A stretch of DNA of 64,000 nt from Verrucomicrobiota bacterium. Its GTDB lineage: Bacteria; Verrucomicrobiota; Verrucomicrobiia; Verrucomicrobiales; Akkermansiaceae. The stretch lies in the NCBI GenBank assembly GCA_004294095.1, contig RDZR01000026.1, positions 16,411 through 80,410 of the forward strand, in the 5' to 3' direction. Below the pieces are notes generated by a model. The model searched no databases. It was given only the letters and a program-made list of their open reading frames with translations, and had not been told where the DNA came from. The translations under genes and the position numbers were made by a program. Below are positions 13,448 through 40,240 of the stretch, piece after piece (the first letter of the stretch is position 1; the number at the start of each line of letters is the position of its first letter).

Positions 13448-13768
13448 CCTCATGCGAGTCGGAACGCAGCGAATGTCTTTAAAATCAAGGGGTTTGATCC
13501 TCTGAGCGGTTGGAGATCAAATTTGGTGAAAATGATACCGAAGTCGGCTCGGTGAATGACGACCTCAGCATGCCCCCCAGAGTTACAGGATTGCGCAAGC
13601 CCGTGGCAGTGTGGCAGCTTTGCTCATGCCGAAGATGCAATTGCCCATTTTTCTCCAATGAATCCATCTCATCACGCCGCACCTCGGCTATCAGCGCGAT
13701 GGCATCGTTTACCTCCACGGCATGATGCCCGTTTTCCTTCACCACTGCAATTCGCGGCCTCTTTCAAA

Positions 13769-14032
13769 ATGATCGTCAGCCAGTTCTATATTAACGGCAA
13801 CGCAAAGCAGGCGGAGTTAGTCCGCATGTTCGGCATCCAACCTCTCGCCCTCAAACGTTGGGTAAAAAGATACCGCACCGATGGTCCCAAGGCGTTTTTT
13901 GAAACCTGCCGCAAACGACATCCAACGCCCAAAAAAAGTCTCTGGACCAAGCTCACTCGCCAGACCCAGTCACCGCCCAACCCGCCGCCCCGCGAGGCAT
14001 CGCCGCCACCGACGAAAACAGGCGAGTGCTAG
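13769..14032 (+). CDS. Transposase-type helix-turn-helix fragment (N-terminal DNA-binding part only, low-complexity P-rich tail)
   Basis: 'AELVRMFGIQPLALKRWVKRYRTDGPKAFFE' matches the HTH + 'W..RY...G' pattern of IS630/IS481-type transposase N-termini. No DDE domain follows. It sits at the left island edge. Confidence 0.45.
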   Translation: MIVSQFYINGNAKQAELVRMFGIQPLALKRWVKRYRTDGPKAFFETCRKRHPTPKKSLWTKLTRQTQSPPNPPPREASPPPTKTGEC

Positions 14033-14358
14033 CCAGTCTCGGCAAAATCGCCGACCCCCAATTCGGCAGATGGTATTAACCTAAAAAACTAACGGGGTAA
14101 CATGCGTTTCAAATCAGTATCATCTTAAAGTCACCCCAACTCTGCCGAGGTCAGGTGTTCTCAAAATGCCTAACATGCCATGGCTTTAGGCAAGAAATTA
14201 TGCGGCCAGTATTCGTTAGCTGTTTGAATTCACGGCAGATACAATGGCTTCCGCGGAATGTGATTGTTGATCCTCCCGACTAACTTGAATGTCATGCGGC
14301 GGTGGGACAGAACGATTAGTAAGGTGGTCATTCCGCGCAGGGAAGCATGACCCATTCC

Positions 14359-15609
14359 TCAATTCTGTTTGGCCACGTTTGCGTCGACAATTCGGAGAAC
14401 CACTCTCCGGTTTGCGGATGGCGAGCCCTCCTGTGGCCTCACATACAAAGGCCTGGAGGATCCATGACCGATCGCAGAGACGCGACTGGCGTCTACGCCA
14501 GAGCGAATCAAAGCGTCACGCACAGAACCCGCCCGTCTTTCAGAGAGCCGTTGGTTGTGTTGTGCAGTACCTTCCGCTGATGTGTGACCCTCCACCACAA
14601 ACTTTGTAAATTGATAGCTTGGGTCGCGGAGCGCGGCTGCCGCTGACTCCAGCAGGGGAGTGCTTTCCTCACGAATTTTGGCAGAATCGAGATCGAAAAT
14701 GATCAGTAACGATACCTCCCTCAACGCTTTGAGGGACTCTCTTATCCCATCGGTTTGCTTAGGTTCCGGGGCCGCAGGTGCCGACGGCATGCTTGGCTGT
14801 CTTACAACCCGCACTGATCTTGTCGGAGCAACCCGCATTTCGACGGTTGTGTCCTGAGAATCCAAAGCGACTGGGCGCTCTGTGGCAAGTGAGCCATACT
14901 GGATCGAGGCACCCTGCCCTTGTATCCAGGCCGTGACGAATCTACGCACTGACGCTCTGTGGATGTCGTTCATGAAATCTGCGTCCACCGAGGTGTCATT
15001 CCACACAACACTGACATTGGATAACAGATCTCCCCTCGTGGCGAACGGCGTCTCATTGATTGTGGCTTGAAGATGCCCATCACTGGGAAAACGGCCTTCG
15101 TTGAAGGAAAACGCGGGCTCCTCACTATCCTGATTGAGCGTAGAGGAAGTGATCATCACCCTGCGAGTGTCGCTAGACATGTTTTCCCTGATTAGCGTGA
15201 ACAATTTCGGCAGGCTAATGATGGGTGCTTGATCATTAGCTATGGCTTTGATCAATTTCATAGCCGCGGCGACTTCCTCGTTAGCGGAAGCAAGGTCAAC
15301 CCTGTTTTCACCCGACTGCAATGCGAGCTGAGGCGTAATTGTGAACGCCGCAGTGCTCGCCAAAGGACCAGAAATCAAGGTGATCGTATCTCCGGCACCA
15401 CCGTTAATCAGGCAATCTTTCCATTGTTTAAAACTGATCGCCCTTGGCACTGTCTCATTAAAGACCAGCAGAACACTTCCCTGTGCAGGAGTTGCCTTGG
15501 CGTTATCATGATCCTTGCCACCACAGGAAACCATGAAGAGTGACGCTGCGGCGATGAGCAATGTAGTGATGCTGGTTTTCATAGGGGTTGTGGTGGTTTG
15601 TTGATTCAT
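14359..15609 (-). CDS. OmpA-domain lipoprotein (peptidoglycan-binding C-terminus, unknown N-terminal domain)
   Basis: Lipobox-like 'LLIAAASLFMVSCGG'. The C-terminus 'FDLDSAKIREES...VEGHTSAEGTAQHNQRLSERRAGSVRDAL' is the canonical OmpA_C motif. The start is ambiguous (15582, 15609 or the TTG at 15627). Confidence 0.8.
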   Translation of the reverse strand: MNQQTTTTPMKTSITTLLIAAASLFMVSCGGKDHDNAKATPAQGSVLLVFNETVPRAISFKQWKDCLINGGAGDTITLISGPLASTAAFTITPQLALQSGENRVDLASANEEVAAAMKLIKAIANDQAPIISLPKLFTLIRENMSSDTRRVMITSSTLNQDSEEPAFSFNEGRFPSDGHLQATINETPFATRGDLLSNVSVVWNDTSVDADFMNDIHRASVRRFVTAWIQGQGASIQYGSLATERPVALDSQDTTVEMRVAPTRSVRVVRQPSMPSAPAAPEPKQTDGIRESLKALREVSLLIIFDLDSAKIREESTPLLESAAAALRDPSYQFTKFVVEGHTSAEGTAQHNQRLSERRAGSVRDALIRSGVDASRVSAIGHGSSRPLYVRPQEGSPSANRRVVLRIVDANVAKQN

Positions 15610-15648
15610 ATTGGCTATGCGTGACAAAAAGAGTCCTGCGCGTGATAA

Positions 15649-16740
15649 CTACGCACGCTCCTGAAGACCATAATGGTAGATGGTGATACCTTCAGAGATG
15701 AAAAGGTCTCGCTCATGCTGGATCATCTGAAGACGCCCCTCGGCACTACCATGCTGGTTTGCCCTATCATGGAAATCGACATGAAGTTTATCCAAATCTC
15801 TTTTTACATTACCGTGGTGAGGATTCTTGATTTTTCCACTGTGATACCGTTTTGTAAGCATGAGGATCACACAGGATAGCGAAAGGGCTCCGGCGCTCAG
15901 CTCAAACAAGATCCACTTTTGTGTCAAATTACCACCCCGCATCAATTCGGATACGGATTCTTCCGGTGCTATTGCCAGCTTTTGTTCGGCCGTTAGTCCG
16001 TTGCGGACAGTCATAACTCCAAGTCCAAGAATGAAATTGCCGAAAGCAAAAGCAAATGGGATCAAGATCAATACGAGCAGCAGTTTCTTGAACCGATTGC
16101 TGGTTACAATATGCAACAAAACCTCCCCAACCATTCCGGCGATTAACAGAATCGCTCCCATGCCGTAGGTAAGAAACGGGTGATTGGTAAAAAGTGGTGA
16201 GTGAGTACCCTCGAAATGGGCCTTCATCGTTAACGGCGATAAAATCACCAGAATCGCGAGTGCCACAGCAGGAATGACCAGCATTATCCAATCTCCCGGG
16301 GTGAATGGCTTCTTTTCTACGTCGTCATTCAAAAACTGCGGCGTATTTGCAAGCTCCTTTGAGACGCGGAGCAATTCCTTCCTTGTTGCCAAACAGTTGC
16401 TCTTTTTGACTTCAGTGATTCTTGTAAGCGGCCCGACTAGCGGTGCGTAGTGCCGGTCAAAGACGGAACTCACAATCGCTTTGACGTTTTCAACGCTTCC
16501 GCTCTTATTCACGACCTGTTGCTGGATCGCGGCATACGGCATCATCGGCTTTTCATAAGTCTGATAGAAACGCTCGAAAGTATCTTTGTCGGGGATGCTT
16601 GAAGGCAAATAATCGACTTCGATTTGATCATCATCCGTATCAACAGCATCAGATGCACCACCCACAGAGTTTGTGACTTCACTGAGATCTTCAGTATTGA
16701 GATCGGCTTCTTTGTTCGCGTTGTTTTTCTGAGTGCTCAT
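15649..16740 (-). CDS. Hypothetical 4-TM membrane protein (acidic N-terminal cytoplasmic domain, C-terminal helical tail)
   Basis: A 363-aa ATG-initiated ORF with four clear hydrophobic helices between about aa 150 and 290. I recognise no family. Confidence 0.6.
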   Translation of the reverse strand: MSTQKNNANKEADLNTEDLSEVTNSVGGASDAVDTDDDQIEVDYLPSSIPDKDTFERFYQTYEKPMMPYAAIQQQVVNKSGSVENVKAIVSSVFDRHYAPLVGPLTRITEVKKSNCLATRKELLRVSKELANTPQFLNDDVEKKPFTPGDWIMLVIPAVALAILVILSPLTMKAHFEGTHSPLFTNHPFLTYGMGAILLIAGMVGEVLLHIVTSNRFKKLLLVLILIPFAFAFGNFILGLGVMTVRNGLTAEQKLAIAPEESVSELMRGGNLTQKWILFELSAGALSLSCVILMLTKRYHSGKIKNPHHGNVKRDLDKLHVDFHDRANQHGSAEGRLQMIQHERDLFISEGITIYHYGLQERA

Positions 16741-16819
16741 GGTGTTGGTGTCTGGTTTCTGTAGTTAGTGCGTTCGATGATCGGTCTTGCTTGTGACGAA
16801 AGTTGTTTATGGAGATGGA

Positions 16820-16850
16820 GATTCTGTTGCCAGGCTCACAGTGCCCCGAT
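16820..16850 (-). repeat. Copy 1 of the conserved leader/promoter motif (minus-strand sense ATCGGGGCAC-N3-GAGCCTGGCAACAGAATC)
   Basis: The 18-nt core GATTCTGTTGCCAGGCTC is identical in all three copies, and GTGCCCCGAT is conserved. It lies 80 nt upstream of the ATG at 16740. Confidence 0.8.
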
Positions 16851-16873
16851 ACTTAGTAAGTCCCGTTGAACGG

Positions 16874-16891
16874 CTAGCCAAAGTCTCCCAT
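16874..16891 (-). CDS. Mini-ORF MGDFG* with its own Shine-Dalgarno (AAAGGAG at 16900-16906)
   Basis: Minus-strand sequence ATG GGA GAC TTT GGC TAG. Its paralog at 17981-18004 keeps the peptide while all four third positions differ. It overlaps the 3' end of the 108-aa ORF 16874-17200. Confidence 0.45.
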   Translation of the reverse strand: MGDFG

Positions 16892-17200
16892 AGTATTTTC
16901 TCCTTTCATAAGTATTGCATGACAGAATTGGGAACCACCGTGACGGAGTTCGTCTCGGGATTGCGAACCCGAAGTAACGAGCGGTTTGTTTCCAACTAGT
17001 TTCACGTCGAAGTGCTCGACGTGCCCATCCATGTGGTGGATCTCGGCGAACTCATCGGGCTTGGCTATGCAGAGCTTGACGCCGCTCCAATAAGCCTTTG
17101 CTGCTGGATTGCTACGAGTCATGGTGATGCTGGCTTTCATGGCAGAGGCTGACTGGATCTTCTTGCGAGAGTAGCTTTTGATTTTCACTCTGGTGCTCAA
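16874..17200 (-). CDS. Hypothetical 108-aa ORF (TTG start); reality uncertain
   Basis: An ORF sits at the position expected downstream of repeat copy 2, 76 nt from the motif. There is no family match and no convincing SD. Its last 5 codons coincide with the conserved mini-ORF. Confidence 0.35.
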   Translation of the reverse strand: MSTRVKIKSYSRKKIQSASAMKASITMTRSNPAAKAYWSGVKLCIAKPDEFAEIHHMDGHVEHFDVKLVGNKPLVTSGSQSRDELRHGGSQFCHAILMKGENTMGDFG

Positions 17201-17275
17201 TGTTTGATGTGTGACTGACTACCCCCCTTCCGTGACGACCTCTGTTTTGGTTCACTCCTCTTTATCGAGATTTTG

Positions 17276-17307
17276 GATTCTGTTGCCAGGCTCCTATGCG
17301 CCCCGAT
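17276..17307 (-). repeat. Copy 2 of the conserved leader/promoter motif
   Basis: The same 18-nt core is followed by CTATGCGCCCCGAT. It lies 76 nt upstream of the TTG at 17200. Confidence 0.8.
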
Positions 17308-17398
17308 GCTGGATTAGTTGATTCGTTATTAATTCTTTATTCTGTATTACCTCCGTTCTTATGATCACTGCGTGACGCTATCCGAGTTTTCCGTGACA

Positions 17399-17869
17399 TC
17401 ATTCGTTTATATGCTTCCATTCCGGTATCGTTAGGAAATGCTCAAATGCGATTGGCCACCCTCCTGATGCACATATCGCATAGTGATAATCTCGTATTTT
17501 CCCATCACGCACGATTGTCTCAGGAGTGTCATCGAGAAATTCGATGCATTCTTCTTGCTTCGAAACCGTTATTCCCAGAGCCGACAAGTTGATCATGCCA
17601 CATTGACAGCAGATTTGAGGTTTGTGCGGCGGAGTTGTATATTCATGCGCCGTGTGGTAATACACGTTAGCAAGTGAAGGCAGTGCGTGAATGCAATCTG
17701 ATGTTCTCGCAGACACATGCAACAAGTCTTTCTTCACTTGACGTAATGCAATGTCTAGTGATGCGCCTTCTATCAAACAGATGAAGTATTTATGCCAAGT
17801 AGGCCGCTCTGGCAGCGTGTAGGAAAATGACACGATCCATTTTTGGTTTCTTTCTGTATGGTTTTTCAT
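17399..17869 (-). CDS. Hypothetical 156-aa protein, paralog of 18089-18550
   Basis: Alignable blocks shared with the 153-aa neighbour: 'FICLIEGASLDIAL' vs 'FLSCLVQGTSLREAL', 'ALPSLANVYYH' vs 'SLPSGAKVYLH', and 'YAICASGG..IAFEHFLTIPE' vs 'YAIRNSDGRIIRLEPFLILPD'. Confidence 0.65.
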   Translation of the reverse strand: MKNHTERNQKWIVSFSYTLPERPTWHKYFICLIEGASLDIALRQVKKDLLHVSARTSDCIHALPSLANVYYHTAHEYTTPPHKPQICCQCGMINLSALGITVSKQEECIEFLDDTPETIVRDGKIRDYHYAICASGGWPIAFEHFLTIPEWKHINE

Positions 17870-17926
17870 ATAATTCTAGCGTAATAGAATATCGTTCATT
17901 CGAACGGATGATATTTGGTAAATTGA

Positions 17927-17958
17927 GATTCTGTTGCCAGGCTCTCTAGTGCCCCGAT
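17927..17958 (-). repeat. Copy 3 of the conserved leader/promoter motif
   Basis: The same 18-nt core is followed by TCTAGTGCCCCGAT. It lies 58 nt upstream of the ATG at 17869. Confidence 0.8.
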
Positions 17959-17980
17959 TCTTAATCAGTGTTTCAGCGTA

Positions 17981-18004
17981 TTAGTCGCCTCCGAAATCGC
18001 CCAT
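17981..18004 (-). CDS. Mini-ORF MGDFGGD* with a strong Shine-Dalgarno (AAAGGAGGA at 18012-18020)
   Basis: Minus-strand sequence ATG GGC GAT TTC GGA GGC GAC TAA, with a 7-nt spacer after the SD. It lies in a 220-bp stretch otherwise lacking any ORF. Confidence 0.45.
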   Translation of the reverse strand: MGDFGGD

Positions 18005-18053
18005 ATTGATGTCCTCCTTTCGTGTGTATTGCGTGACCTCTGGCGAGTTGATC

Positions 18054-18070
18054 GTGACAGCAAGTGTCAC
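18054..18070. promoter_or_regulatory. Inverted repeat GTGACA-N5-TGTCAC just after the stop of 18089-18550
   Basis: Perfect 6-bp arms that share the GTGAC core recurring in all intergenic regions of this sub-cluster. Confidence 0.4.
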
Positions 18071-18088
18071 GTTCCAAATATCCCCATC

Positions 18089-18550
18089 CTAACGAAGGTC
18101 CGGAAGTATGAGGAATGGTTCTAGGCGAATGATTCGACCATCGCTGTTTCGGATCGCGTAGGGATTATCCCGTTTCAACCCATCCGGGATGAGTGGTTCG
18201 GGACAAGTGAAAATCGGAATGATGTCTTCCTCGCAATCGGGAATATCGATGCCGATTGTCTTCATGTCCATAGTGCCACTCATGAATAGGCATGATGCAT
18301 CCGTCGTCATTGCTCCAATCTCGACTGTCTGATGGAGATACACTTTCGCTCCCGAAGGAAGTGAATGCTCATTTTCTTTATCCTCGATATACATCTTTCG
18401 GATCGTAGTCTTGAGCTCTAAGAGGGCTTCACGCAGAGAAGTCCCTTGAACAAGGCACGATAGGAACGTGTTTACCTTGGCATTGTCGGGAGCAACGAGT
18501 GCAAGTTGCGCTAGCCAAATTCTCGACGATTTCGTGGATGGTTTCTTCAT
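18089..18550 (-). CDS. Hypothetical 153-aa protein, paralog of 17399-17869
   Basis: See the paralog alignment blocks above. ATG start at 18550. Confidence 0.65.
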   Translation of the reverse strand: MKKPSTKSSRIWLAQLALVAPDNAKVNTFLSCLVQGTSLREALLELKTTIRKMYIEDKENEHSLPSGAKVYLHQTVEIGAMTTDASCLFMSGTMDMKTIGIDIPDCEEDIIPIFTCPEPLIPDGLKRDNPYAIRNSDGRIIRLEPFLILPDLR

Positions 18551-18582
18551 ACCTATAGTGCATGACAGGAACTCGTTGGCTT

Positions 18583-18599
18583 GTGACGATTCTCGTCAC
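18583..18599. promoter_or_regulatory. Perfect palindrome GTGACGA-TTC-TCGTCAC, 33 nt upstream of the ATG at 18550
   Basis: 7-bp perfect arms. The left arm is part of GCTTGTGACGA, which is also present at 16788-16798 upstream of 15649-16740. Confidence 0.5.
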
Positions 18600-18622
18600 T
18601 GTATTCATAACATATTTAGTAT

Positions 18623-18643
18623 TTAGCAGATGTCATCTGCTAA
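18623..18643 (-). terminator. Hairpin TTAGCAGAT-GTC-ATCTGCTAA downstream of the receiver gene (terminator or operator)
   Basis: A perfect 9-bp stem with a 3-nt loop lies about 30 nt after the stop at 18672. It is followed by AT-rich sequence but has no clean U-tract. Confidence 0.35.
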
Positions 18644-18671
18644 CCGTCATCTCTTTCTTGCTCAGATCAAG

Positions 18672-20021
18672 TTATGAAATAGTCCACTCCACTCCGCTTG
18701 GAGGGTGGTAGGACCAAGCACCGCTTGTGGATGAAAGATAAGCTTCGAGGTGTGCAGCAAAGGCGGCGAAACCATTCTCACGTAAGCAGTCTCTGCATCG
18801 ACTCATGCGGGCCCGGAATGCCATTGCCGTTGGCGAATCTTCGCCCCATCCTCCTTGTCTTGACGTGTAATTGCCACCTTGGGGGTGAAGATCATTCTGT
18901 GCCATTTTTGGGATGTCGACCGAAGAGTCCTCTGGTGCGTTCTCTTCGCTTTCATCCGTTGGCACCTCTACTGGCAAATCATTTGCTCCTGACATCCGTG
19001 AGTATTGTTTCTCCGCAATCGAGGCTAAAGGACCAAGCTCGCTAACAATCACAGCGAGCTCCTCTTCTTCATTCGCGGAGAGATCCTCCTCCTCTTCGAG
19101 TTCTCTGAGTTCGACATATCTGGTAAAGCGATGCGCTAGTGCAACCCGAATGAGATTCTCCTGGGCTTCCTCTGACATCTCGTTCCAAGGAACCCCTTTG
19201 GATACGAAGTAGTCCCTGACGGGATCTTCGACTTCCCCAGCATCGCCACTCCCAGCCTGATCGGGCTTTTCGTTTTTTGGTTCGAGGAACAAAGCTGCCT
19301 CTGGATTCAATGACTCGCCACGTTCCATTGACAAAATGTGATGCAACGTCTTGAAGCCGGTTTTGTGCGGAAGTGTCCGGATGTCCCCACAATCGAAGCG
19401 GATTTGCCAATGAAGCGACGTGGTCTCAATGAACTTTCGGGCTCCCTTTTTGTTCTTGTCTTCCTTTGCCGCCTTGACTCGTTCGAGGCTCTTCACTTCG
19501 ATCGGTCTGAAGATGTAACGCAACCTTCCCACCTCGCCGAAAACAAGAGCGATCTGCTCGATGCGATTGTGGAGAAGCGTCTGCGCCTCCTCCTGAGGTA
19601 GAAACCGTGAAGGCTTCTCGACCACCAACAGCCGCTCTGCCGGGAATTTCCGGTAGGCGGCGCTGCGTAAACTCTTCCTCAGCCTATCGCCCTCTTCCGC
19701 ACCCATAATCGTGTCGATACTGGCGTCGGTCTCTACACCAGTCAGCAAGGATACCATCCATGCGGATTGAAATCGTTTCAATGAGGCCAGGACATCGAGG
19801 CCCGACAGGTCGGCATCTCCAAGATTCACGTCCAAAGAGACCAGATCGTAAGGATGCGCTTGGGCCTGCCTGGCCAGATCACGAGCCTCTTCCACCGTGG
19901 ATGCGGTTTCGATCGTGATTGAGGTGTATCCCTGTGCAATGAAAACCTCGCGATAGGTCTTTTTTAAAAGAGCAAGCAAATCGGCTTCGTCTTCAACAAT
20001 GAGCATTCGGATGGATTTCAT
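18672..20021 (-). CDS. Orphan response-regulator receiver protein with a non-canonical output region (REC-A)
   Basis: Receiver signature 'LIVEDE' ... 'DLVSLDVNL' ... 'VSLLTGV' ... 'VVEKPS'. This is followed by 'WQIRFDCGDIRTLPHKTGFKTLHHIL', acidic linkers and a helical C-terminus. It is a paralog of 21995-23401. I chose the ATG at 20021; the track ORF runs to 20168. Confidence 0.8.
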   Translation of the reverse strand: MKSIRMLIVEDEADLLALLKKTYREVFIAQGYTSITIETASTVEEARDLARQAQAHPYDLVSLDVNLGDADLSGLDVLASLKRFQSAWMVSLLTGVETDASIDTIMGAEEGDRLRKSLRSAAYRKFPAERLLVVEKPSRFLPQEEAQTLLHNRIEQIALVFGEVGRLRYIFRPIEVKSLERVKAAKEDKNKKGARKFIETTSLHWQIRFDCGDIRTLPHKTGFKTLHHILSMERGESLNPEAALFLEPKNEKPDQAGSGDAGEVEDPVRDYFVSKGVPWNEMSEEAQENLIRVALAHRFTRYVELRELEEEEDLSANEEEELAVIVSELGPLASIAEKQYSRMSGANDLPVEVPTDESEENAPEDSSVDIPKMAQNDLHPQGGNYTSRQGGWGEDSPTAMAFRARMSRCRDCLRENGFAAFAAHLEAYLSSTSGAWSYHPPSGVEWTIS

Positions 20022-20041
20022 GGAGATTGGGTGGTTTGAAT

Positions 20042-20800: not shown

Positions 20801-20863
20801 GGGTCTCGGGCTTTTCGAGGAAGGAGTGCTGGGCAATGATGAAAGGAATGAACGTCGCCGTCA

Positions 20864-21990: not shown

Positions 21991-21994
21991 TGGC

Positions 21995-32968: not shown

Positions 32969-32999
32969 TTTCAGAACTGACTGTATCGAACAACATCAA

Positions 33000-33122: not shown

Positions 33123-33134
33123 TGATGAGTTTGG

Positions 33135-34535
33135 TTAAATTGGTTGACTCTCGGTTGTGGTCACTTTCGATCTGCCTAGCAATTGCCCTATCCCAAAGCA
33201 GACTAGCGAGGCCGCAATCCCAATTAGGATAGCTGGCACTGCACCCGGCTCCTTAGCTGCCTGCCACGCCCACGATGCTGCGCCGCCCCCAAGGATGGAT
33301 AGCCACCCTGCAAGGGGCTTAGCTTTATCGAGATAAAGCGCTGCGATTAACGGAACAATCATGCATGGAGCCCATATCGCATACAGGAAGAGGAGCCCAT
33401 CAATTATTGAGGGAGCGAATTGAGCCACGAAAATGGCCAAGGCAGCAAGCACGAGCGTTCCGCCCTTCGCAAGCAGCAATGACCATTTTTCTCCAGGGTG
33501 AATGAAAATGCTGATGATGTCGCGAACCAGTGAACTGGCGGCGGCATTCAGGCAAGCTTCCTGACTCGACATAACGACCGCCACAATCGTGGCGAGTAGC
33601 AGGCCGAACACACCAACCGGCAGAATAGCCTGTCCAGCTTTTACAAAGACGTCATCTGGGGCTGTGTCCGCAGGCAGTATGCCGTGCGCAACGATTCCAA
33701 AGGCTGCAACTATGGCCAGCCAGACTACCACGAAAACCCCAGCCATTAGAAACCCTGATTTGGATGCTGCTTGGGTTTTTGCCGAAAGAGCCCGGTTGGC
33801 ATACGGTGGAATTAGGACTTCACCCAACATGAAAGAGATGGCGATGCCAAACATCTGCCATGCAGTCATGCCTTTGAAGCTAGCAGAGGTAAGTTCAGAT
33901 GCTTTGTCGGAGAGTTCCGCCATACTCAGTGAGGACTGTCCGACTCCTAGCAGCAGTGTAATAGGAATTACAATGGCGATCATGGAAAACTGCATCCCTT
34001 CGGTGGCAATGGTTGCGCGCAAGCCTCCAGCGAAAGTCAACAGGGCGGTGGTTCCGGTGACGGCAATTAGGCAATACATCAACGGCCATCCAGTGATCAT
34101 GTGCAGCATCGAGCCGCCCACTTTGCCCATTATTGCGGTGAAGCCAACACACAAGCCGACTGAGAGAATTCCGGTGAGCAAATGGCTGAATGCGCCATAG
34201 CGTTTCCTCATGACATCACCCAGCGTGTTGCAATCCCGGTGTTGAGCGAGGCGAGGCGCGAATAGAAGGCCAGTAATAAGAATCTGGATCGAGAAAGTGA
34301 CCGCGAGGAAGTAAAATAAAAAGCCTTGGTCCCAGCTTTTGCTGCTGACGCCCACCGAAAAGCCCGGCCCAACAATGGTCGCTGCAAGGCTCGCGAAAAC
34401 CATAACCGCTGGAACCGAGTGCTTGCCCGTGGCAAATTCGCTGAAGGTCCTCGTTCGTCGTGTAAAATATCCCAGCACTCCCATGAGGACGAAGTATCCG
34501 GCTACGGCTGCGAGATCGAGAGGATGAAGGGACAT
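33135..34535 (-). CDS. Sodium:solute symporter (SSS) family transporter
   Basis: About 13 TM helices, and the N-terminus 'LDLAAVAGYFVLMGVLGYFTRR' is typical of the SSS family. I chose the ATG at 34535. The longer GTG ORF would swallow the palindrome at 34563-34587. Confidence 0.8.
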   Translation of the reverse strand: MSLHPLDLAAVAGYFVLMGVLGYFTRRTRTFSEFATGKHSVPAVMVFASLAATIVGPGFSVGVSSKSWDQGFLFYFLAVTFSIQILITGLLFAPRLAQHRDCNTLGDVMRKRYGAFSHLLTGILSVGLCVGFTAIMGKVGGSMLHMITGWPLMYCLIAVTGTTALLTFAGGLRATIATEGMQFSMIAIVIPITLLLGVGQSSLSMAELSDKASELTSASFKGMTAWQMFGIAISFMLGEVLIPPYANRALSAKTQAASKSGFLMAGVFVVVWLAIVAAFGIVAHGILPADTAPDDVFVKAGQAILPVGVFGLLLATIVAVVMSSQEACLNAAASSLVRDIISIFIHPGEKWSLLLAKGGTLVLAALAIFVAQFAPSIIDGLLFLYAIWAPCMIVPLIAALYLDKAKPLAGWLSILGGGAASWAWQAAKEPGAVPAILIGIAASLVCFGIGQLLGRSKVTTTESQPI

Positions 34536-34562
34536 TGGAGAACAGGCTATGTGTTGATTATT

Positions 34563-34587
34563 GGGCGTGACAGGATCGGTCACGCCC
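34563..34587. promoter_or_regulatory. Perfect palindrome GGGCGTGAC-N7-GTCACGCCC, 28 nt upstream of the symporter ATG
   Basis: 9-bp perfect arms with the same CGTGAC core seen upstream of the other island transcription units. Confidence 0.55.
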
Positions 34588-34780
34588 ACATTTGGGATCT
34601 TCGCGACAGAGCCTTTTACACGGCAATTCGTTGATATTCAAGCTTTCTTACCCGCTTTGGAACACACGGAAGGGAGAGGGAATTCAGCGTAAATTGGAAA
34701 CTCAAGGTGTTTTTTCCATCCACGATGCTTTCGATGATCTCAATTTTGTCGTGTGTTGCGGCGATCCCGCAGGAGAAAAT

Positions 34781-35377
34781 TTAGGTATTCAGTCGATCAA
34801 GTGCCCGGCGGAGTTCCTCGGTTAACTCGTGTTTGAAAAACCAATCGCGGAGTGCCTCATCGCCGACTTCGGTGGAGAGATTTTCAGCAGCGCCCACTTG
34901 TTCGGGGTAGCACTCTCCCGCCTTGAATCCATGGAGTCCATCCGCCGCACGGATGGTGAAATGCTCGGTGACTCCTTCATAGAGATCACGGAGGGATTCG
35001 TTCGCATGGACTTCGCGGAGCGTCTCCGGGTGGGTCATCCGGTGAAGATCTTCATGGATGAGGGTGGCGATTTCCTGGCCGACATCTGCTTTCAGAACGT
35101 GGGCGGGGTCTTCAAGATAGGTCGAATACCCGAGAATGCCTTCTGTCGATTTGATCCCGGCCTCGCGGGCGCTCTCGACGAAATCGTCTCGTTTTTCGAG
35201 GAGATCGGGGATTTCCCGGAGTTTTTCGAATTTCTCGGGGGCTATTGAGTTCGCATACTCTGCATGAAGCCGTCTTTCCGCGATTTCACGCGGGATGTCG
35301 TCCAGCGTTTCAAGCCGACGATCCGACATTTGAGATTCGCTGGCTTCGGAACTGAGTTCGCTGGACTGGGTTTTCAT
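34781..35377 (-). CDS. Hypothetical HExxH protein (putative zincin-like metallopeptidase/effector)
   Basis: 'TLIHEDLHRMTHP' with a downstream 'EGVTEHF'. There is an ATGA overlap with the HerA-like ATPase stop. I chose the ATG at 35377. Confidence 0.55.
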   Translation of the reverse strand: MKTQSSELSSEASESQMSDRRLETLDDIPREIAERRLHAEYANSIAPEKFEKLREIPDLLEKRDDFVESAREAGIKSTEGILGYSTYLEDPAHVLKADVGQEIATLIHEDLHRMTHPETLREVHANESLRDLYEGVTEHFTIRAADGLHGFKAGECYPEQVGAAENLSTEVGDEALRDWFFKHELTEELRRALDRLNT

Positions 35378-37839
35378 GGTTTCGGTTTGTAGGCGTGGGT
35401 TTGAAACGCTTCCCGGAGACGAGTCAACGTGCCGCGACTCAGGCCGGCAGCCGTTCCAAGAGAGATCAGAAAACACAAGGGGCCAGCGGGAAGTGATGAA
35501 ATCATTCCCGGTTGATCGCAGATCTCACGAGTAGCCCAGTCCCAAGTGGCGGACTCGCTTTCCTGGAGAACGCGCTGAAGCTCGGCGAGGCGGCGTTGCA
35601 GGTGGGCGGGGTTGGCTCCCGAGAGTTGGGCGGAACAATTTACGGTGGTGCAGACCGGGCAGGCTGAGATTTTACACACCGGATTTTCCACAGAAGGCAG
35701 CGGCAAATGAGGCAAGGGAAGCCTCCCGTAGGTGATGGCTGGATTTGGCAGGCGCAGGCGGAATGGGCGAGTCCTGCGATCCGAGCGGAGGATGGCATCA
35801 CCCACAGGCAGAGCACCGAGTAGGTCGATCTGGTTGGCTGGGAGTCCGGCGGCCCGTCCGGCGAGTTCGCGGTCGGCGGGATGGTCAAGGCGATGAAGAA
35901 TCTTCGTGCCGGTATTGGCAATTACAGATGGAACAAGTGCCGACGGGGTTTGATCGACGATGATCATGCCGACGCCCAGACCGCGCATTTCGGCAAGCAT
36001 GTTGGCCAAGCTTTCGACGGCTTGATTGCGGGAGGCGTTGGCGGCGGTTTCGGGCACGGCTTTCAAGAGGCGGTGAGCTTCCTCAATCAGGAGGGCGTGA
36101 CGAAGTGAGTCACTCTGCCCCTCAAGCCTCCAATGATGCCGCAATTGCAGAGTGATCAATCCCATGATCAGGGCTTGGGACGGCGCATCCGTGAGGGCTG
36201 ACAACTCGATAATGGTGGGACGTTTCACCAAGCTGGCGATGTCGAGCCCCAGAGATGATTTAAGTTCGGGAGCCAACGGCCCTTCGAGCAACCGACGCAT
36301 ACGAAGCAGTAAACCGGCACGAATATTTCCCGTGATTTCAGCGCCGTATCCAAATTTTGACGCACTGCGGTCAATTTCATCGACCAGATCAGCGAGAGTG
36401 GGCGGCGGTCCATGGGGAACCAACCCGGCGAGGTTCCAGCCATGGTTTCGATAGGTCTGCTCAATCGCGGTGGCCAATACCTCCGGCATGGGAGCAACCA
36501 ACTCGAAAGCGGATGCAAACACCGTGAAGAGGGCGGTCGTGTGCTCAGCAAGTCCGACGCCGGGGGGCAAGGCCATCGGGTTCAACGAGAGGCGTCGGGA
36601 CTTCGGATCGCCGATGGCCCACACGTCAAGGTCTGCTCCAATCTCGCTATTCAGAAGCCGGCGATAGCCGGTTTTCAATCCGGGTTCGATGACCAGCCAT
36701 GGGATCTGGTGTTCACGCCATAATTCAAGCAACAGGTGTTCGCAGGTCACACTCTTGCCGGATCCCGTCATGCCGGCCACGAGCAAATGGCGACAAAGTT
36801 CATCAACGCCGATTTCAAGCCAAGCTCCAGGCTTACCTTGATCGTTGAGGATTTTGCCGGAAACGATGGTCCGACTCTCGGTTCCCGGAACTGTGGCTGT
36901 CGCGAATATGGCCTGCATCACAGGACCGTGTGGAGAACTGGTCTCTCTGATGCTTGTTTCCACGACAAAGCCGGGCATCTCCCGACGAGGTGGACGAGTG
37001 AGTGCAGCGGCCTCAGATGTCCGAAGGAAAGTCAAAGACCTTGGGTCACTGGCATTCTGCCATCTGATCGGCTCCGGTTGTCCTCCATCCGCTGAGTAGC
37101 AACCATGAATGAGTGAGCATGCCTGATTAAAGACTCTCTGGTCGGACGCCGCGACCAGAGTGCGCACCAGCCAACCGCCTTCCTGAAAGGATGAGGTGGC
37201 CCGGGACTTAGCCGCCTCCACAAGTTTAAGGTAGCGACTCGATCCAGTATGATTGTCCTTCTCCAAACCGCCTCGTGACAGATACTCGTCCCGGATATAC
37301 TGCTCATCGCGGCACAAGCGACTCCACTCGGCTTCAATCGAAGTTCTGGGTAACGCTTTAGCAATCACAAGAACCATGAATTCATGGCCTAAAAGCGTGC
37401 GTATGACAGGCTCAAGTCTGGCCGAAGGCCCGAGACCTGAATGCCCACCCATGGCACCACGAAAGGTAAGCGCATTGATTCGCTTGTCCAAACTGGAAAA
37501 ATCACCAGAAGGTTCAAGAATGGCACCCGTTATGTGAGTGCCAACCGATTCGGAAGCACCTAAGACAAGATCTGGCAGAACCAGTTTCCACGAAACTCCA
37601 TCTTCTTCTGCAACGGCGCAAACTCCCCAAGTCAGGCCAAGAGCCCACCATGAGCGCACCACTGACTCCCATGCCAGATCCGAGTCAAGTTCAGCATGTC
37701 CTGGGGCTGCGGCGAGTCCTCTCAACCGCCATGCAGACAAGCCATCGACCGGAAAGAAATTGGGCCAAATGTTAGACGGAATTTCACCTCGCAGCATGGA
37801 GGTGGCATCGGCAAGAGATTGGTTCAAAAGCAGGCTCAT
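35374..37839 (-). CDS. HerA/FtsK-like (DUF87-type) P-loop ATPase, 821 aa
   Basis: Walker A 'VAGMTGSGKS', Walker B-like 'HALLIEEAHRLL', and 'GMIIVDQTPSAL...TKILHRL'. A long N-terminal non-ATPase region and a Cys-rich C-terminus 'CKISACPVCTTVNC' flank the ATPase core. Confidence 0.75.
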   Translation of the reverse strand: MSLLLNQSLADATSMLRGEIPSNIWPNFFPVDGLSAWRLRGLAAAPGHAELDSDLAWESVVRSWWALGLTWGVCAVAEEDGVSWKLVLPDLVLGASESVGTHITGAILEPSGDFSSLDKRINALTFRGAMGGHSGLGPSARLEPVIRTLLGHEFMVLVIAKALPRTSIEAEWSRLCRDEQYIRDEYLSRGGLEKDNHTGSSRYLKLVEAAKSRATSSFQEGGWLVRTLVAASDQRVFNQACSLIHGCYSADGGQPEPIRWQNASDPRSLTFLRTSEAAALTRPPRREMPGFVVETSIRETSSPHGPVMQAIFATATVPGTESRTIVSGKILNDQGKPGAWLEIGVDELCRHLLVAGMTGSGKSVTCEHLLLELWREHQIPWLVIEPGLKTGYRRLLNSEIGADLDVWAIGDPKSRRLSLNPMALPPGVGLAEHTTALFTVFASAFELVAPMPEVLATAIEQTYRNHGWNLAGLVPHGPPPTLADLVDEIDRSASKFGYGAEITGNIRAGLLLRMRRLLEGPLAPELKSSLGLDIASLVKRPTIIELSALTDAPSQALIMGLITLQLRHHWRLEGQSDSLRHALLIEEAHRLLKAVPETAANASRNQAVESLANMLAEMRGLGVGMIIVDQTPSALVPSVIANTGTKILHRLDHPADRELAGRAAGLPANQIDLLGALPVGDAILRSDRRTRPFRLRLPNPAITYGRLPLPHLPLPSVENPVCKISACPVCTTVNCSAQLSGANPAHLQRRLAELQRVLQESESATWDWATREICDQPGMISSLPAGPLCFLISLGTAAGLSRGTLTRLREAFQTHAYKPKP

Positions 37840-38726
37840 GGTGATTGGGGGTCAATGATGGTTTGAAAATGCGGTTGGTGCAGAGAATCACGAACTTTAT
37901 TGAGTTCACGATTCACCCAGGGAACACCGGCAAAGTATAGCCAGAGAACAGCAAATAAAAGAGAGCAGGATCCAATGATCGCCAAGCGGCGTGCATTGGG
38001 CTGACAGGGACAAATCGAGGCTCCAGTTCGCTGACAAACAATCGCATTCACGAGGAAGACTCCCCTGCGCCAAGATCCGATCGCACGGATCCGGTCGCCC
38101 TCCATCAAAGAGCCACCGTGCAGGTGCCCTTTCAATCTGAGTTGAGTTTCGCGCTCGTCGATTTCCCGCAGTCTCGCCATCACTACAGGCATCGGTTCTA
38201 CGACGTGACGCCCGTTGAGCGCCGCAGTGAGGTGCCAACTCTGCATCAAACGGTTTGAAAAAATGAAGCGAAGCACCATTAACGCAACTACAGAAAAGCC
38301 TAGTGCCATTAAAAATCCATAAGTCTGCCACACCACGATAGCTATCGCACAAGGAGTGGTCAAAAGTGCTAGACCCCAAACCGGGATCGCAAGCCAACGC
38401 CACGGATCAAAGTCCATCGGTTCGTGCGGAGCTTGACGGACAATGATTACTCGCCCCTCGATTTCTGCTGACTGAAGAAAAGATCCACTCTTTCTGCTGC
38501 GCGACGATCCAAGAGCCAGAGTGGTCGGTGGCTGAGTAGCAGTCAAAGCCTGCGATTCGCTGGGAAAGAGCGAATTTCTTAGGTTTCCAGCCGCGTCAGG
38601 TGACCTTGTTAGGCTGTCCAGCGGAACGTGTGAGTCATGGCCACACTCCGAGCACAATCCTTCGATGGCCGACCGTCGCCCACAAGAGGAACACCGGATT
38701 GCGATGCGTGGACGATCAGTGGTCAT
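37836..38726 (-). CDS. Zinc-ribbon membrane protein (296 aa)
   Basis: A strong SD (GAAGGAGGGG) lies 5 nt before the ATG at 38726. It has 'CSSCGRR...CSECGH' and 3 TM helices. There is an ATGA overlap with the ATPase start. Confidence 0.6.
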   Translation of the reverse strand: MTTDRPRIAIRCSSCGRRSAIEGLCSECGHDSHVPLDSLTRSPDAAGNLRNSLFPSESQALTATQPPTTLALGSSRSRKSGSFLQSAEIEGRVIIVRQAPHEPMDFDPWRWLAIPVWGLALLTTPCAIAIVVWQTYGFLMALGFSVVALMVLRFIFSNRLMQSWHLTAALNGRHVVEPMPVVMARLREIDERETQLRLKGHLHGGSLMEGDRIRAIGSWRRGVFLVNAIVCQRTGASICPCQPNARRLAIIGSCSLLFAVLWLYFAGVPWVNRELNKVRDSLHQPHFQTIIDPQSP

Positions 38727-39033
38727 ACCTGCCCCTCCTTCTATTTCGACGATCATGATGCGGAGGCCATGGCTCGGACGAGCTACAGTCCTGGTATCTG
38801 ATATTTGATCTTCCAAAGATGCCACGCCAAAGAATAGAAAGACCCAAAAAACTTATAGCCAGTGCCAACAGAGGGACTGAAATCTCGTCGAGCATCGACA
38901 ATGCGACTAATCCCAACGGATGACTCGACGTTAGCAGAACCATCAGCAATACCGTTGGCCAACGCATAAAACGCGGACCACGACCGAGCCAACACCAGCA
39001 GGAAAGAGAGATAGTAAGGATGATTGGGAGCAT
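38716..39033 (-). CDS. Small hydrophobic protein (105 aa), first ORF of the HerA module
   Basis: An ATG ORF with 2-3 hydrophobic helices. It overlaps the next gene by 11 nt. A GGCGTGACGGG site sits ~24 nt upstream of its ATG. Confidence 0.4.
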   Translation of the reverse strand: MLPIILTISLSCWCWLGRGPRFMRWPTVLLMVLLTSSHPLGLVALSMLDEISVPLLALAISFLGLSILWRGIFGRSNIRYQDCSSSEPWPPHHDRRNRRRGRYDH

Positions 39034-39083
39034 AAATATTTCTGGTTCGATATTAAGGCGTGACGGGAATTGTAATCGGGTAA

Positions 39084-39359
39084 ATTATTAACTCGCGCAG
39101 TATTTACTATGCGCATGGCATAAGAATTGCTGGATATACTTTTCTATGGAAAAACGAGACGCGAGGAAACCGCGGTCCAGATCTCAATCCTGACGAATAT
39201 TTCAACCGCGACGTGAAGACCGAACTCGCCAAACGCCCGGAACGTCGAACCAAAGGAAAGTGGCGGGAGAGTGTGGAGGGCGCGCTCGAAAGTATCGCAA
39301 ATCAGCCTGAGCGGATAGTCAGCTACTTCAAGTCCAGACATATAAAATATGCCATTTAA
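39084..39359 (+). mobile_element. 3' remnant of an IS630/Tc1-mariner-type DDE transposase gene
   Basis: The frame ending in TAA at 39357-39359 translates as '...RGNRGPDLNPDEYFNRDVKTELAKRPERRTKGKWRESVEGALESIANQPERIVSYFKSRHIKYA'. This matches the conserved C-terminal 'P.LNP.E' block of IS630-family transposases. There is no start codon and no upstream DDE part. Confidence 0.6.
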
Positions 39360-39361
39360 AT

Positions 39362-40240
39362 ATTGCGCGGGTTAATATCAGGCAGTGTTTCTCCGCGCGA
39401 ATCATTCAAGGCAATAGCGAGAGTCTAGCTGGACGGGTTGCAACTTTGGAAATCGGAGGGTTCGATTTGGATGAAACAGGAACCGAAAATTGGGAACGCC
39501 TCTGGCTACGTGGAGGGCACCCGCCCTCTTTCTTGGACGTTACCGACGAGGGCGCGATGGAGTGGAGAGCCAACTATCTGGAACGGTTATTCGGACGGGA
39601 TCTTCGGATTTGGTCAAATCTGAGCCTTCACCCCGCACAAACTCGGAAGTTGATGACTCTGATAGCGGACTGCACAGGCAGGGCGTGGAACCATTCCGCC
39701 GCAGCGAAGATCCTAGATTTGGATGTGAAGACGATCCAACGCTATGTGGATATTTTGGAAGCCGCCTATCTGGTGAGACTCTTGCCTCTGTTAGAAGTCA
39801 ATATACGCAAACGCCTTCGTAAAGCTCCTACCATCCATGTCCGCGACAGTGGAATCGCTCATGCCATGCTTGCAATTCAAACCCGCGAACGTTTGGAAAT
39901 TCATCCGCGTATGGGCCAAACATGGGATAGTTTCTGCATTGATCAGATCATACGGCTCACAGAAACGCGGCCTGAATACTGTCACACCTTTTCGGTTCAA
40001 AGCGGATCTGAGATCGATTTGATTTTGGATCGACCGGACGGACGCTATGGATTTGAAATTAAAAGTTCGGAGCACAGTCGTCCAAAAGCGGCAGACAAAG
40101 AGTGGATCAATCTGTTAGATCTCTGCTGTCTTCACCAAGTGAGACGCGGAAAGGGCAGCTACGATTTGGGCGATGGATTGTTTTCAACAGGAATAGAGCA
40201 AATACCTCAGATCGCGGCGAAAATTCGCGGAGGAATTTAG
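39362..40240 (+). pseudogene. N-terminally truncated DUF4143/COG1373 AAA+ ATPase gene (P-loop domain missing)
   Basis: The open frame begins mid-domain with 'SESLAGRVATLEIGGFDL...RANYLERLFGRDL...TIQRYVDILEAAYLV...GSEIDLIL'. The AAA+ N-terminal half is absent, and homology starts immediately after the transposase remnant. Confidence 0.6.

Follow-up and report, generated by a model that had tools for sequence, protein, structure and literature searches.

The 64,000-nt stretch of contig RDZR01000026.1 (GCA_004294095.1) analysed here, hereafter the window, comes from a member of the Akkermansiaceae (Verrucomicrobiota) and contains, between ribE and a histidine kinase (HK)/OmpR-type regulator operon, a long run of minus-strand genes, which raises the question of whether this run was acquired from elsewhere and, if so, what kind of system it encodes. 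A preliminary description of the DNA had proposed that the run is a horizontally acquired island, that most of its proteins belong to no characterised family, and that it is the place in the window where an undescribed system would reside. All three proposals held up: the DNA at window 13436-40242 entered recently, by horizontal transfer, between ribE and the HK/OmpR operon; most of its proteins receive no assignment from Pfam, NCBIfam, PADLOC or the PDB; and together they make up a conserved, undescribed system. As a genomic island alone the feature is ordinary. Its cargo is not represented as a system in PADLOC, Pfam or NCBIfam, no paper describing it was found in the literature searched, and it is organised around three adjacent genes, here called C0, C2 and C1, of which C0 and C1 encode receiver domains. 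The cargo is grouped here with receiver-domain-gated conflict modules (defence or element maintenance), with phages or other mobile DNA as the opponents, a reading that is favoured tentatively, at a little under an even chance, from sequence comparison and structural models.

Acquisition of the insert

The site without the insert is present in a sister genome (GCA_013297845.1, locus L019), which was reached through the ribE protein, as this shares a 90% cluster with a second NCBI assembly. The gene order there is UbiA, Na/H antiporter, ribE, an 88-aa open reading frame (ORF), HK, OmpR-type regulator and VWA. In blastn comparisons with this one close relative the flanks are 97.5-98.8% identical at the nucleotide level across 18.5 kb (window 7491-13435 at 97.5%, window 40243-49659 at 98.8%), the breakpoints fall at 13435/13436 and 40242/40243, and the 26,807 bp between them are represented in the sister genome by 588 unrelated bp at the same place. 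The insert replaces this 588-bp spacer, which has no similarity to the window, and the event was therefore not a clean insertion. The HK at 40244-42022 beside the insert is host DNA, being present in the sister genome, whereas the insert takes in both transposase fragments and a 5'-truncated DUF4143 ATPase gene; its core, delimited by homology to related loci, extends from 14319 to 39087 (24.8 kb). A second difference between the two genomes lies at window 7386-7491, opposite L019 3129-4661, where the sister genome alone has ~1.4 kb that form part of a 544-aa Helicase_C_3-like gene.

The composition of the block is foreign to its surroundings to a degree far beyond chance. Tetranucleotide profiles correlate with the flank average at 0.93-0.96 in all flank windows and at 0.58-0.77 within 14-38 kb, and the hexamer TCTAAC/GTTAGA, which had been said to saturate both flanks and to be almost missing between them, does so: 86 copies occur in the window, where base composition predicts ~28, and only 4 of the 86 lie between 13049 and 39789. 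The extended form of the motif is approximately (W)TCTAACA(G/A), with TCTAACA present in 57 copies in the flanks and 2 in the island, and this oligomer looks like a genome-wide host signature, for example an uptake-signal-type repeat. The composition check that had been proposed for island and flanks thus separates them by tetranucleotides and oligomers and fails to do so by guanine plus cytosine (GC) content (0.46-0.58 in the island versus ~0.52). In the flanks (1-13048 and 39790-64000) the hexamer reaches 82 copies in ~37 kb, or 2.2/kb, some 5 times the composition expectation, and its two orientations are equally common (45/41).

That the block is instead ancestral and was lost from the sister genome is barely credible. 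Such a reading can appeal to the single close relative compared and to the 588 bp there, which are unrelated to the window, but it is opposed by the foreign tetranucleotide profile and near-absence of the host oligomer, by the transposase fragments at the borders, and by the fact that parts of the block are 79-95% identical to an unrelated metagenome scaffold with other neighbours.

The borders proved to be as first described: the left edge carries only the helix-turn-helix (HTH) part of a transposase, the right edge only the C-terminal remnant of a transposase of the IS630 type, and the adjoining DUF4143 ATPase gene begins mid-domain (Table 1). The left fragment has only weak tblastn matches, to HTH/IS21-type ORFs, and was assigned to no insertion sequence (IS) family; the translation of the right one opens 'GPDLNPDEYFN...'. 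The block resembles IS-flanked islands and composite transposons in being strain-specific and of foreign composition with transposase remnants at both ends, and differs from them in that only fragments are present: an IS630 composite transposon would have to be built from pieces of only ~90 aa, the left one not assignable to IS630, and no terminal inverted repeats. No direct repeats, inverted repeats or target duplications were found at the insert borders, no integrase among the insert ORFs in family scans, no tRNA gene in the 64-kb window, and no second copy of either edge fragment elsewhere in it. That the two fragments are halves of a single IS630 was considered and rejected; only the right one is IS630, and ~180 aa of the transposase would be absent. 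The core of the insert is one piece of a larger mobile element found in bacteria of the Verrucomicrobiota type and now lies between decayed transposase fragments. The truncated DUF4143 gene may be an older resident of this lineage, because two host-type hexamers (at 39790 and 40114) lie within it, yet it is not in L019. Its absent AAA_14 half was sought to the left of the insert, and no P-loop was found in any frame of 13436-13768. An intact AAA_14/DUF4143 ATPase gene is found inside the minimal C0-C2-C1 locus of L014-L016, where it lies between C0 and C2.

A conserved three-gene core

C0, C2 and C1 are adjacent and in one order in 13 of the 13 related loci on contigs that extend beyond C0. 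These loci come from Verrucomicrobiales, Chthoniobacter, Brevifollis, Phycisphaerales, Hydrogenedentes and metagenome contigs; intervening genes are limited to the DUF4143 ATPase between C0 and C2 in one locus and a small 103-aa ORF in one. These comparisons show the trio to be the invariant core of a gene neighbourhood that spans several phyla, in a sample that is small relative to the ~840 clusters of the C0 family. C0 is split into two genes in some loci, while C2 is ~250 aa and C1 ~430-470 aa long. In the window two C2-C1 pairs are present, a divergent one (C2'-C1') directly after C0 and a canonical one after the gene for an OGFr_N-domain protein.

C1 is the best conserved of the three, with 50-59% identity across Verrucomicrobiota, Phycisphaerales and Hydrogenedentes. 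In its receiver domain the acidic residue, the phospho-acceptor Asp, the Thr and the Lys-Pro pair are invariant, and PDB profile matches cover this domain only. The receiver is followed by a segment 'WQIRFxCGEIRTLP..GFxTLHxLL' and then by a conserved C-terminal module; read by eye, and with no database match, this segment has the pattern of OmpR/SARP-type winged helices, and C1 looks like a transcription factor. C2 has four invariant residues (G20, G22, C212 and H217); no relatives of known function were detected for it, and a word-index homologue search returned 2 close relatives only. Two further small proteins are frequent partners in related loci, C5 before C0 and C9 after C1, the latter sometimes fused to a protein of ~860 aa.

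Predicted domains of C0

The 80 homologues of C0 returned by a word-index search are all annotated as hypothetical, and nearly all of the named ones come from metagenome-assembled genomes of Verrucomicrobiota. An exhaustive profile search of 1.84 billion sequences enlarges the family to 843 representative clusters (counted at 50% identity) at E <= 1e-3 and 781 at E <= 1e-10. The layout of the protein is an N-terminal a/b domain plus a helical domain, then a receiver, then a C-terminal third of DUF3800/RNase-H-fold type, and the AlphaFold2 (AF2) model is of good quality by its own measures (pLDDT 85, pTM 0.80). Alignment of 41 diverse members reveals invariant residues in each part: H204 and N208, on one helix, in the N-terminal region; the receiver signature D284 D285, D358, S428 and K450-P451; and E516, D641 and D782 in the C-terminal domain, where D515 and H778 are nearly invariant. 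In the model the catalytic-type residues lie on strand 509-517 (strand 1) and on helices 640-658 and 776-790. Adjacent D-E and H-x3-D are the layout of DEDDh-type RNase-H-fold nucleases (the DnaQ-like family), and the C-terminal domain is accordingly interpreted, from alignment and model, as a predicted DUF3800/RNase-H-fold nuclease with the active-site set D-E-D-(H)-D. The sequence around H204, 'EQHHALSNVL', resembles the HisKA_2 H-box 'EIHHRVKNNL'; this likeness is at the level of the motif, with no database match.

Comparison with structures is consistent with this assignment at the level of domains. Foldseek with the whole C0 chain against the PDB gives nothing below E 0.1, and the weak domain-level matches are to the receivers of NtrX, PorX and DctD and to PIWI/RNase H2; the best viral fold match (BFVD) is a phage DUF3800 domain-containing protein (probability 1.00, TM 0.43). 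Against Pfam DUF3800 (PF12686) C0 scores a sub-threshold 18.1 bits (gathering score 21), one of the 41 relatives matches at 1.6e-4, and the relative on contig P0003 has a precomputed match. PDB profile searches of C0, C1 and the 954-aa, 287-aa and HExxH proteins of the insert returned matches to S-adenosylmethionine (SAM) motifs and receiver domains only. DUF3800 is reported to be an RNase H fold that has undergone a catalytic rearrangement (PMC10910872). The substrate of the putative nuclease is most likely RNA, because longer relatives contain fused RNA-binding domains (CSD in 3, KH_5 in 2 and S1 in 1).

A mosaic of exchangeable blocks

The single-strand run had been described correctly: all credible ORFs from 39033 down to 14359 are on the minus strand, 22 of them of at least 100 aa, two of which are doubtful (105 aa and 108 aa). 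The eleven consecutive tight junctions also exist, as ATGA overlaps (-4) or gaps of 3-63 nt ending at 18672, but they start at 32968, with the a/b-hydrolase gene, and not at 34535, because the gap from the sodium:solute symporter (SSF) gene to the hydrolase gene is 166 nt and that from the HExxH gene to the SSF gene 245 nt. The GTG start on which one overlap had been said to depend is that of the 954-aa protein; with the ATG start the protein has 943 aa and the overlap becomes a 4-nt gap. The island was indeed acquired, but comparison with related loci shows it to be composite and not one operon, a mosaic in which three blocks have been recombined at gene boundaries. Block 1 consists of a membrane Zn-ribbon protein, a HerA-type ATPase and the HExxH protein; block 2 (variant II) of the SSF transporter, hydrolase, cysteine desulfurase, 287-aa protein, 954-aa methyltransferase fusion, 243-aa protein and C0-C2'-C1'; and block 3 of peptide deformylase, the OGFr_N protein, the second C2-C1 pair, small proteins, a membrane protein and an OmpA lipoprotein. 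About 10 of these proteins have no Pfam, NCBIfam or PADLOC family.

The exchange is seen most directly in a metagenome scaffold of the European Nucleotide Archive (ENA), L020. Window 34781-39087, comprising block 1, is 95.3% identical at the nucleotide level to part of it, with homology ending exactly at the IS630 fragment (39087) on one side and exactly at the stop codon of the HExxH gene on the other. Upstream of the shared block L020 has a gene resembling type IV coupling proteins (T4CP; DUF87/TrwB/TraG), and downstream of it a different cassette, encoding an ATP-binding cassette (ABC) ATPase, a radical-SAM enzyme, SBP_bac_5, two permeases, 786-aa and 586-aa proteins, C5, C0, C2 and C1. After C1 the scaffold continues with a 175-aa ORF, OGFr_N, small ORFs, a 362-aa membrane protein and the OmpA lipoprotein, and the OGFr_N gene and tail match the window again at 79-88%. 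The comparison thus shows a whole cassette swapped between near-identical flanks. The other blocks have their own relatives: contig L017 is collinear with window 22806-14359 (72-89%) and holds a 91%-identical copy of C2 (20042-20800), whereas L018 carries the middle block, with SSF, cysteine desulfurase, proteins of 287, 938 and 238 aa, C0, and proteins of 234 and 467 aa.

Three cassettes can be distinguished. Variant I combines an Opp/Nik-type ABC importer with a radical-SAM/SPASM enzyme and large uncharacterised proteins; variant II is that of the window, with SSF, hydrolase, cysteine desulfurase, the Cys-rich 287-aa protein, the 954-aa methyltransferase fusion and the 243-aa protein; and variant III combines a branched-chain-type ABC importer with a methyltransferase and a Cys/Met-family enzyme dependent on pyridoxal phosphate (PLP). 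No sequence link was found between the variant-I proteins (C4, 'mid' and C6) and the 954-, 287- and 243-aa proteins of the window; the 243-aa protein, which occupies the position of C5, aligns to the C5 family in hhalign with E 3.5e-4 but only 37% probability and may be a divergent C5. The SSF gene has a matching position in L018 and on the P0003 contig. The 287-aa gene is translationally coupled to the cysteine desulfurase gene by an ATGA overlap. The desulfurase itself scores highly with PADLOC models (SspA 5e-95, DndA 8e-94), but every NCBIfam match is below its equivalog cutoff (DNA_S_dndA 231 bits versus 480, with NifS scoring higher). The 954-aa family has 15 homologues among 5.8e9 proteins. 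Its N-terminal ~310 aa are a class-I SAM methyltransferase, whereas the remaining ~630 aa have no confident fold match; in the AF2 model (pLDDT 76) the Foldseek matches of the N-terminal part are 1wzn, YunM, AzeJ, CcbJ, NmbA and METTL6, which suggests a methyltransferase of the small-molecule or RNA type. The possibility that the C-terminal 630 aa are the missing histidine kinase of the system was examined and set aside: one loose bacteriophytochrome fold match was obtained, and hhalign to the HK of the window and Pfam scans of 15 members were unsupportive.

The ATPase of block 1 matches PADLOC mad8 at 3.1e-18 over aa 350-695 (PADLOC models being used without a curated cutoff), as well as HerA models, with P-loop-only matches to SspH; it also matches the NCBIfam model of the CedD DNA-translocating ATPase at 3.3e-16. 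Its nearest PDB entries are anti-phage HerA proteins, all of them weak matches (E 4e-7) that cover parts of the ATPase core only. HerA/mad8-like ATPases lie beside the system in the window, in L020/L021, on the P0003 contig and in L007. The gene for the zinc-ribbon membrane protein is translationally coupled to the ATPase gene (ATGA overlap) and has a 296-aa homologue in L020 and L021, and the HExxH protein, of which L005 and L020 encode homologues, is invariably found after the HerA-like ATPase. The motif of the latter protein, HEDLH...H, is conserved and is typical of zinc metallopeptidases.

The trio also occurs without any cassette. In this minimal form (L014), from a contig that also bears TrbI and ParA, the trio has AbiEi/Fic on one side and a methyltransferase-helicase on the other. 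Downstream of C1 other relatives encode a TCAD9 protein with a nucleoside-phosphorylase-like stretch, RihC-like nucleoside hydrolases and a phosphoribosyltransferase (PRTase)-like protein, and in L005 an archaeal-type AdoMet synthetase adjoins the core. In four relatives a divergent fused RpoB-RpoC-like ORF is found just downstream of the core (L002 20341-23066, L013 18735-22682, L005 22118-22690 and the P0003 contig), often behind the C9-fused ~855-aa protein and a RihC-like nucleoside hydrolase. The fusion is from >1850 to 2134 aa long and scores only ~170 bits against bacterial beta subunits in the PDB; no such gene is present in the window. The fused beta-beta' paralogue of RNA polymerase is itself unexplored, and literature searches on rpoB-rpoC paralogues yielded nothing of use.

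Comparison with known systems

The closest parallel in logic is Detocs, in which a kinase (DtcA) is combined with a receiver (DtcB) and a receiver fused to a purine nucleoside phosphorylase (PNP) effector that acts as an ATP nucleosidase (DtcC) (bioRxiv 10.1101/2023.01.24.525353). Common to both are a receiver fused to a potentially toxic effector (here C0), a second receiver protein in the operon, and a modular effector and sensor side. However, no recognisable sensor histidine kinase is present in the island or in related loci; the output of C0 is of the RNase-H fold (DUF3800) and not PNP, with no PNP_UDP match; the second receiver protein has its own winged-helix-like output, and there are extra partners, C2 and usually C5 and C9. 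No sequence homology to Detocs was detected among the island proteins. DUF3800 proteins are known from other conflict contexts, namely Cas12a2 (TPR-DUF3800) and retrons (PMC10910872), and share with C0 the predicted RNase-H-type nuclease fold, but in C0 this domain stands behind a receiver in a three-part protein, and the island contains no CRISPR array, reverse transcriptase or noncoding RNA (ncRNA).

The remaining candidates resemble the insert through its accessory genes. The link to MADS is the match of the ATPase to mad8, but mad1 and mad3-7 are lacking and the only other match, to mad2 (7.5e-4), is to the SAM-binding motif of the 954-aa protein. The SIR2-HerA and DUF4297-HerA systems have in common with the insert an ATPase of the HerA/FtsK superfamily, for which the nearest solved structures are anti-phage HerA, but no SIR2, DUF4297 or NurA partner is present, the partners here being the Zn-ribbon membrane and HExxH proteins. 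The link to Dnd/Ssp systems is a DndA/SspA-like cysteine desulfurase translationally coupled to downstream genes, but DndB/C/D/E and SspB/C/D are not found by PADLOC, the desulfurase is of the generic NifS/IscS type, and other variants lack it. As for radical-SAM/SPASM clusters for ribosomally synthesized and post-translationally modified peptides (RiPPs), no radical-SAM gene is present in the window, and radical SAM is found only in the variant-I cassette of relatives. Each of these systems (Detocs, MADS, Dnd/Ssp, HerA-partner systems and RiPP clusters) fails at least one defining feature here.

Proposed function and alternatives

The favoured reading, a receiver-gated conflict module, would operate as follows. 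A signal would be created or sensed by the swappable cassette of importer and sulfur/SAM enzymes, by the HerA ATPase, or by both. The receiver Asp residues of C0 (D358) and C1 would be phosphorylated in response, whereupon C0 would release its DEDDh-like RNase-H-fold nuclease, most likely on RNA, and C1 would change transcription. C2, with its invariant Cys and His, and the C0 helix that bears His204 and Asn208 may hand on the phosphoryl group. By analogy this logic resembles that of Detocs, with different proteins and no recognisable kinase. Several features of the context favour a conflict role: cassettes are exchanged between near-identical flanks and the genes are carried on mobile DNA; the minimal core lies between AbiEi/Fic and a methyltransferase-helicase on the TrbI/ParA contig; the neighbours in other loci include TCAD9, RihC-like hydrolases, the PRTase-like protein and mad8/HerA-like ATPases; and anti-phage HerA proteins are the closest solved relatives of the ATPase. 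If correct, whether as defence or as element maintenance, it would extend two-component-style immune signalling beyond Detocs and illustrate how a signalling core can stay the same while entire sets of enzyme and transport genes in front of it are exchanged, with receiver domains paired with a nuclease-type effector and no visible kinase. A bolder formulation, which we regard as somewhat unlikely, is that C0-C2-C1 would represent a new class, an RNA-centred, phosphorylation-gated, kinase-less His/Asp relay (C0 His204, C2 His217 and the two receiver Asp residues) with a swappable cassette and a HerA-type ATPase, joined in several relatives by nucleoside-degrading enzymes and a dedicated RNA polymerase with fused beta and beta' subunits; it would sense an imported or self-made small molecule, answer by RNA degradation and dedicated transcription, and be unrelated by descent to described defence, toxin-antitoxin and two-component systems.

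Several observations weigh against a conflict module. No HisKA or HATPase_c domain is found in the island ORFs or in the gene tables of related loci, and with no kinase gene the source of phosphate is the weakest link of the mechanism. Searches of phage and plasmid collections recovered neither C0 nor C1, no PADLOC model matched the core proteins, and the HerA-like ATPase reaches only 37.8 bits against the NCBIfam HerA_antiphage model, the cutoff of which is 800. Known defence systems seldom include importers, PLP enzymes, radical-SAM and other SAM enzymes, peptide deformylase or envelope proteins, and gene content of this kind (importer, PLP, SAM and envelope genes) fits a metabolic or biosynthetic reading at least as well. 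The nuclease activity, its RNA specificity and the phosphorylation are moreover predictions from sequence and models.

The main rival, a metabolic or biosynthetic island whose cassette would import or synthesise a modified peptide or a small molecule (sulfur- or SAM-derived) under the dedicated control of C0-C2-C1, is taken seriously, unlikely as we consider it to be. It would account for the pairing, in three different cassettes, of an importer with SAM, PLP or sulfur enzymes, for a methyltransferase domain resembling the small-molecule enzymes YunM, AzeJ, CcbJ and NmbA, for the archaeal-type AdoMet synthetase next to the core in L005, for the transcription-factor-like appearance of C1 and for the tight translational coupling of the enzyme genes, and the extra peptide deformylase could be a self-resistance copy. 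It does not readily explain why a cassette can be missing altogether, as it is where the trio lies next to AbiEi and Fic on a contig of conjugative type, and a conserved nuclease-type active site with RNA-binding fusions is odd for a pathway regulator; furthermore, ABC transporters dependent on a substrate-binding protein (SBP), like SSF transporters, import a product and do not export it. Neither a nonribosomal peptide synthetase (NRPS) nor a polyketide synthase (PKS) was seen, and no precursor peptide turned up, although no search aimed at such peptides was made.

The same occurrence of the trio near TrbI and ParA in L014, together with the T4CP-like ATPase upstream of the HerA block in L020, the CedD model match (3.3e-16) and the RpoB-RpoC fusion just downstream of the core in four contexts, could be read as housekeeping of an integrative or conjugative element, in which the HerA/FtsK-like ATPase and its membrane partners would move DNA, C0-C2-C1 would control the life cycle, and the fused beta-beta' RNA polymerase of relatives would transcribe element genes. 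This is quite improbable: the window copy has no integrase, relaxase, type IV secretion system (T4SS) or polymerase and yet keeps intact, tightly coupled ORFs, the trio also stands in long chromosomal contigs with no visible transfer genes, and the enzyme cassettes have no obvious role in transfer. Modification of nucleic acid by thiolation and methylation of DNA or RNA, in the manner of Dnd/Ssp or MADS and with HerA as a restriction-side motor, is more improbable still. Its attraction lies in the PADLOC scores of the desulfurase and of the ATPase (mad8, and SspH in the P-loop only), in the weak mad2 match of the methyltransferase, and in a methyltransferase fold that is also close to METTL6 and cap-N7 methyltransferase; but no homologue of DndB/C/D/E, SspB/C/D, mad1 or mad3-7 accompanies them, the desulfurase remains below every NCBIfam equivalog cutoff, the methyltransferase is not of the DNA N6, N4 or C5 type, and other variants of the system replace desulfurase and methyltransferase altogether.

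Whichever function applies, the cargo defines a multi-phylum family (~840 clusters at 50% identity) with no name, no solved relative and no entry in defence catalogues, and the island strain and its isogenic-like empty site constitute a natural pair with and without it.

Features of the insert

The features are collected in Table 1. Of the two doubtful ORFs, that of 105 aa (38716-39033) overlaps its neighbour by 110 nt, that of 108 aa lies at 16874-17200, and no gene is called at the corresponding place in L020; they are probably not genes. No Rfam family was found in the island, and promoter and terminator scans of it gave results at or below shuffle expectation.

Table 1. Coordinates in the window of the insert and its features, with the evidence for each assignment
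Feature	Position	Strand	Basis
Strain-specific insert, whole	13436..40242	.	blastn vs L019; tetranucleotide profile; scarce host oligomer
Transposase-type N-terminal HTH fragment	13556..14032	+	Pfam HTH_28 only, 1.7e-6, aa 70-113
OmpA-domain lipoprotein, end of conserved element	14359..15627	-	Pfam OmpA (C-terminal, peptidoglycan-binding) 2e-19; lipobox 'MVSCGG'
363-aa multi-pass membrane protein	15649..16740	-	No family match; conserved partner of OmpA lipoprotein
Two small paralogues, no family	17399-17869 (156 aa), 18089-18550 (153 aa)	-	blastp 28% identity, 7e-20
C1, canonical copy	18672..20021	-	Pfam Response_reg 2.2e-8, 34.7 bits vs 30.2 cutoff
C2, canonical copy, 252 aa	20042..20800	-	Clusters with C2 gene of every related locus
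OGFr_N-domain protein	20864..21457	-	Pfam OGFr_N 9.1e-14
Peptide deformylase, extra island-borne copy	21454..22014	-	Pfam Pep_deformylase 3e-43
C1', divergent receiver-domain regulator, variant-II block	21995..23401	-	28% identical to C1; 467-aa L018 counterpart
C2', divergent C2, variant-II block	23406..24107	-	hmmsearch with C2 profile, E 2.2e-17; 234-aa L018 counterpart
C0, 875 aa	24111..26738	-	Receiver + DUF3800/RNase-H-fold region (predicted); 80 homologues
243-aa protein, C5 position of other loci	26735..27466	-	No family; 238-aa counterpart in L018
954-aa (or 943-aa) protein	27471..30335	-	Pfam Methyltransf_31/25 at N-terminus
287-aa protein, six conserved cysteines	30307..31170	-	No family, no PDB match; aligned with L018
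NifS/IscS-type cysteine desulfurase (class-V aminotransferase)	31167..32303	-	Pfam Aminotran_5 3.6e-61
Alpha/beta-hydrolase	32300..32968	-	Pfam Hydrolase_4 and Abhydrolase_1
Sodium:solute symporter (SSF), importer of variant-II cassette	33135..34535	-	Pfam SSF 1.6e-30
HExxH protein, 231 aa	34781..35476	-	HEDLH motif read in alignment; no Pfam or PDB match
HerA/FtsK-superfamily ATPase, 821 aa	35374..37839	-	Pfam DUF87 and HerA_C
Zinc-ribbon (CxxC..CxxC) membrane protein, 329 aa	37836..38825	-	Motif and membrane helices read in sequence
IS630-family transposase C-terminal fragment	39084..39359	+	tblastn 40-42% identity to annotated IS630-family transposases, E 2e-9
5'-truncated AAA_14/DUF4143 ATPase gene	39362..40240	+	Pfam DUF4143 3.9e-30, profile positions 12-160, without AAA_14 P-loop

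Block 3 is shared in part with several relatives. The peptide deformylase gene has a matching position in L017 and a homologue near the system in L011, and the OGFr_N gene, which overlaps it by ATGA, recurs in L017, L022 and the P0082 contig; the two genes travel together between the variable block and the tail of the element (L017 830-1956; L022 9487-10591). The literature searched attributes no role to OGFr_N proteins of bacteria. The two small paralogues were considered as candidates for C9 and rejected (hhalign probability 0.06%); their region (17399-18550) has an 86.6% nucleotide match in L022. The OmpA lipoprotein that ends the conserved element has collinear homologues in L017 and L022, and in both the OmpA gene is preceded, as in the window, by a gene for a 362/363-aa homologue of the membrane protein.

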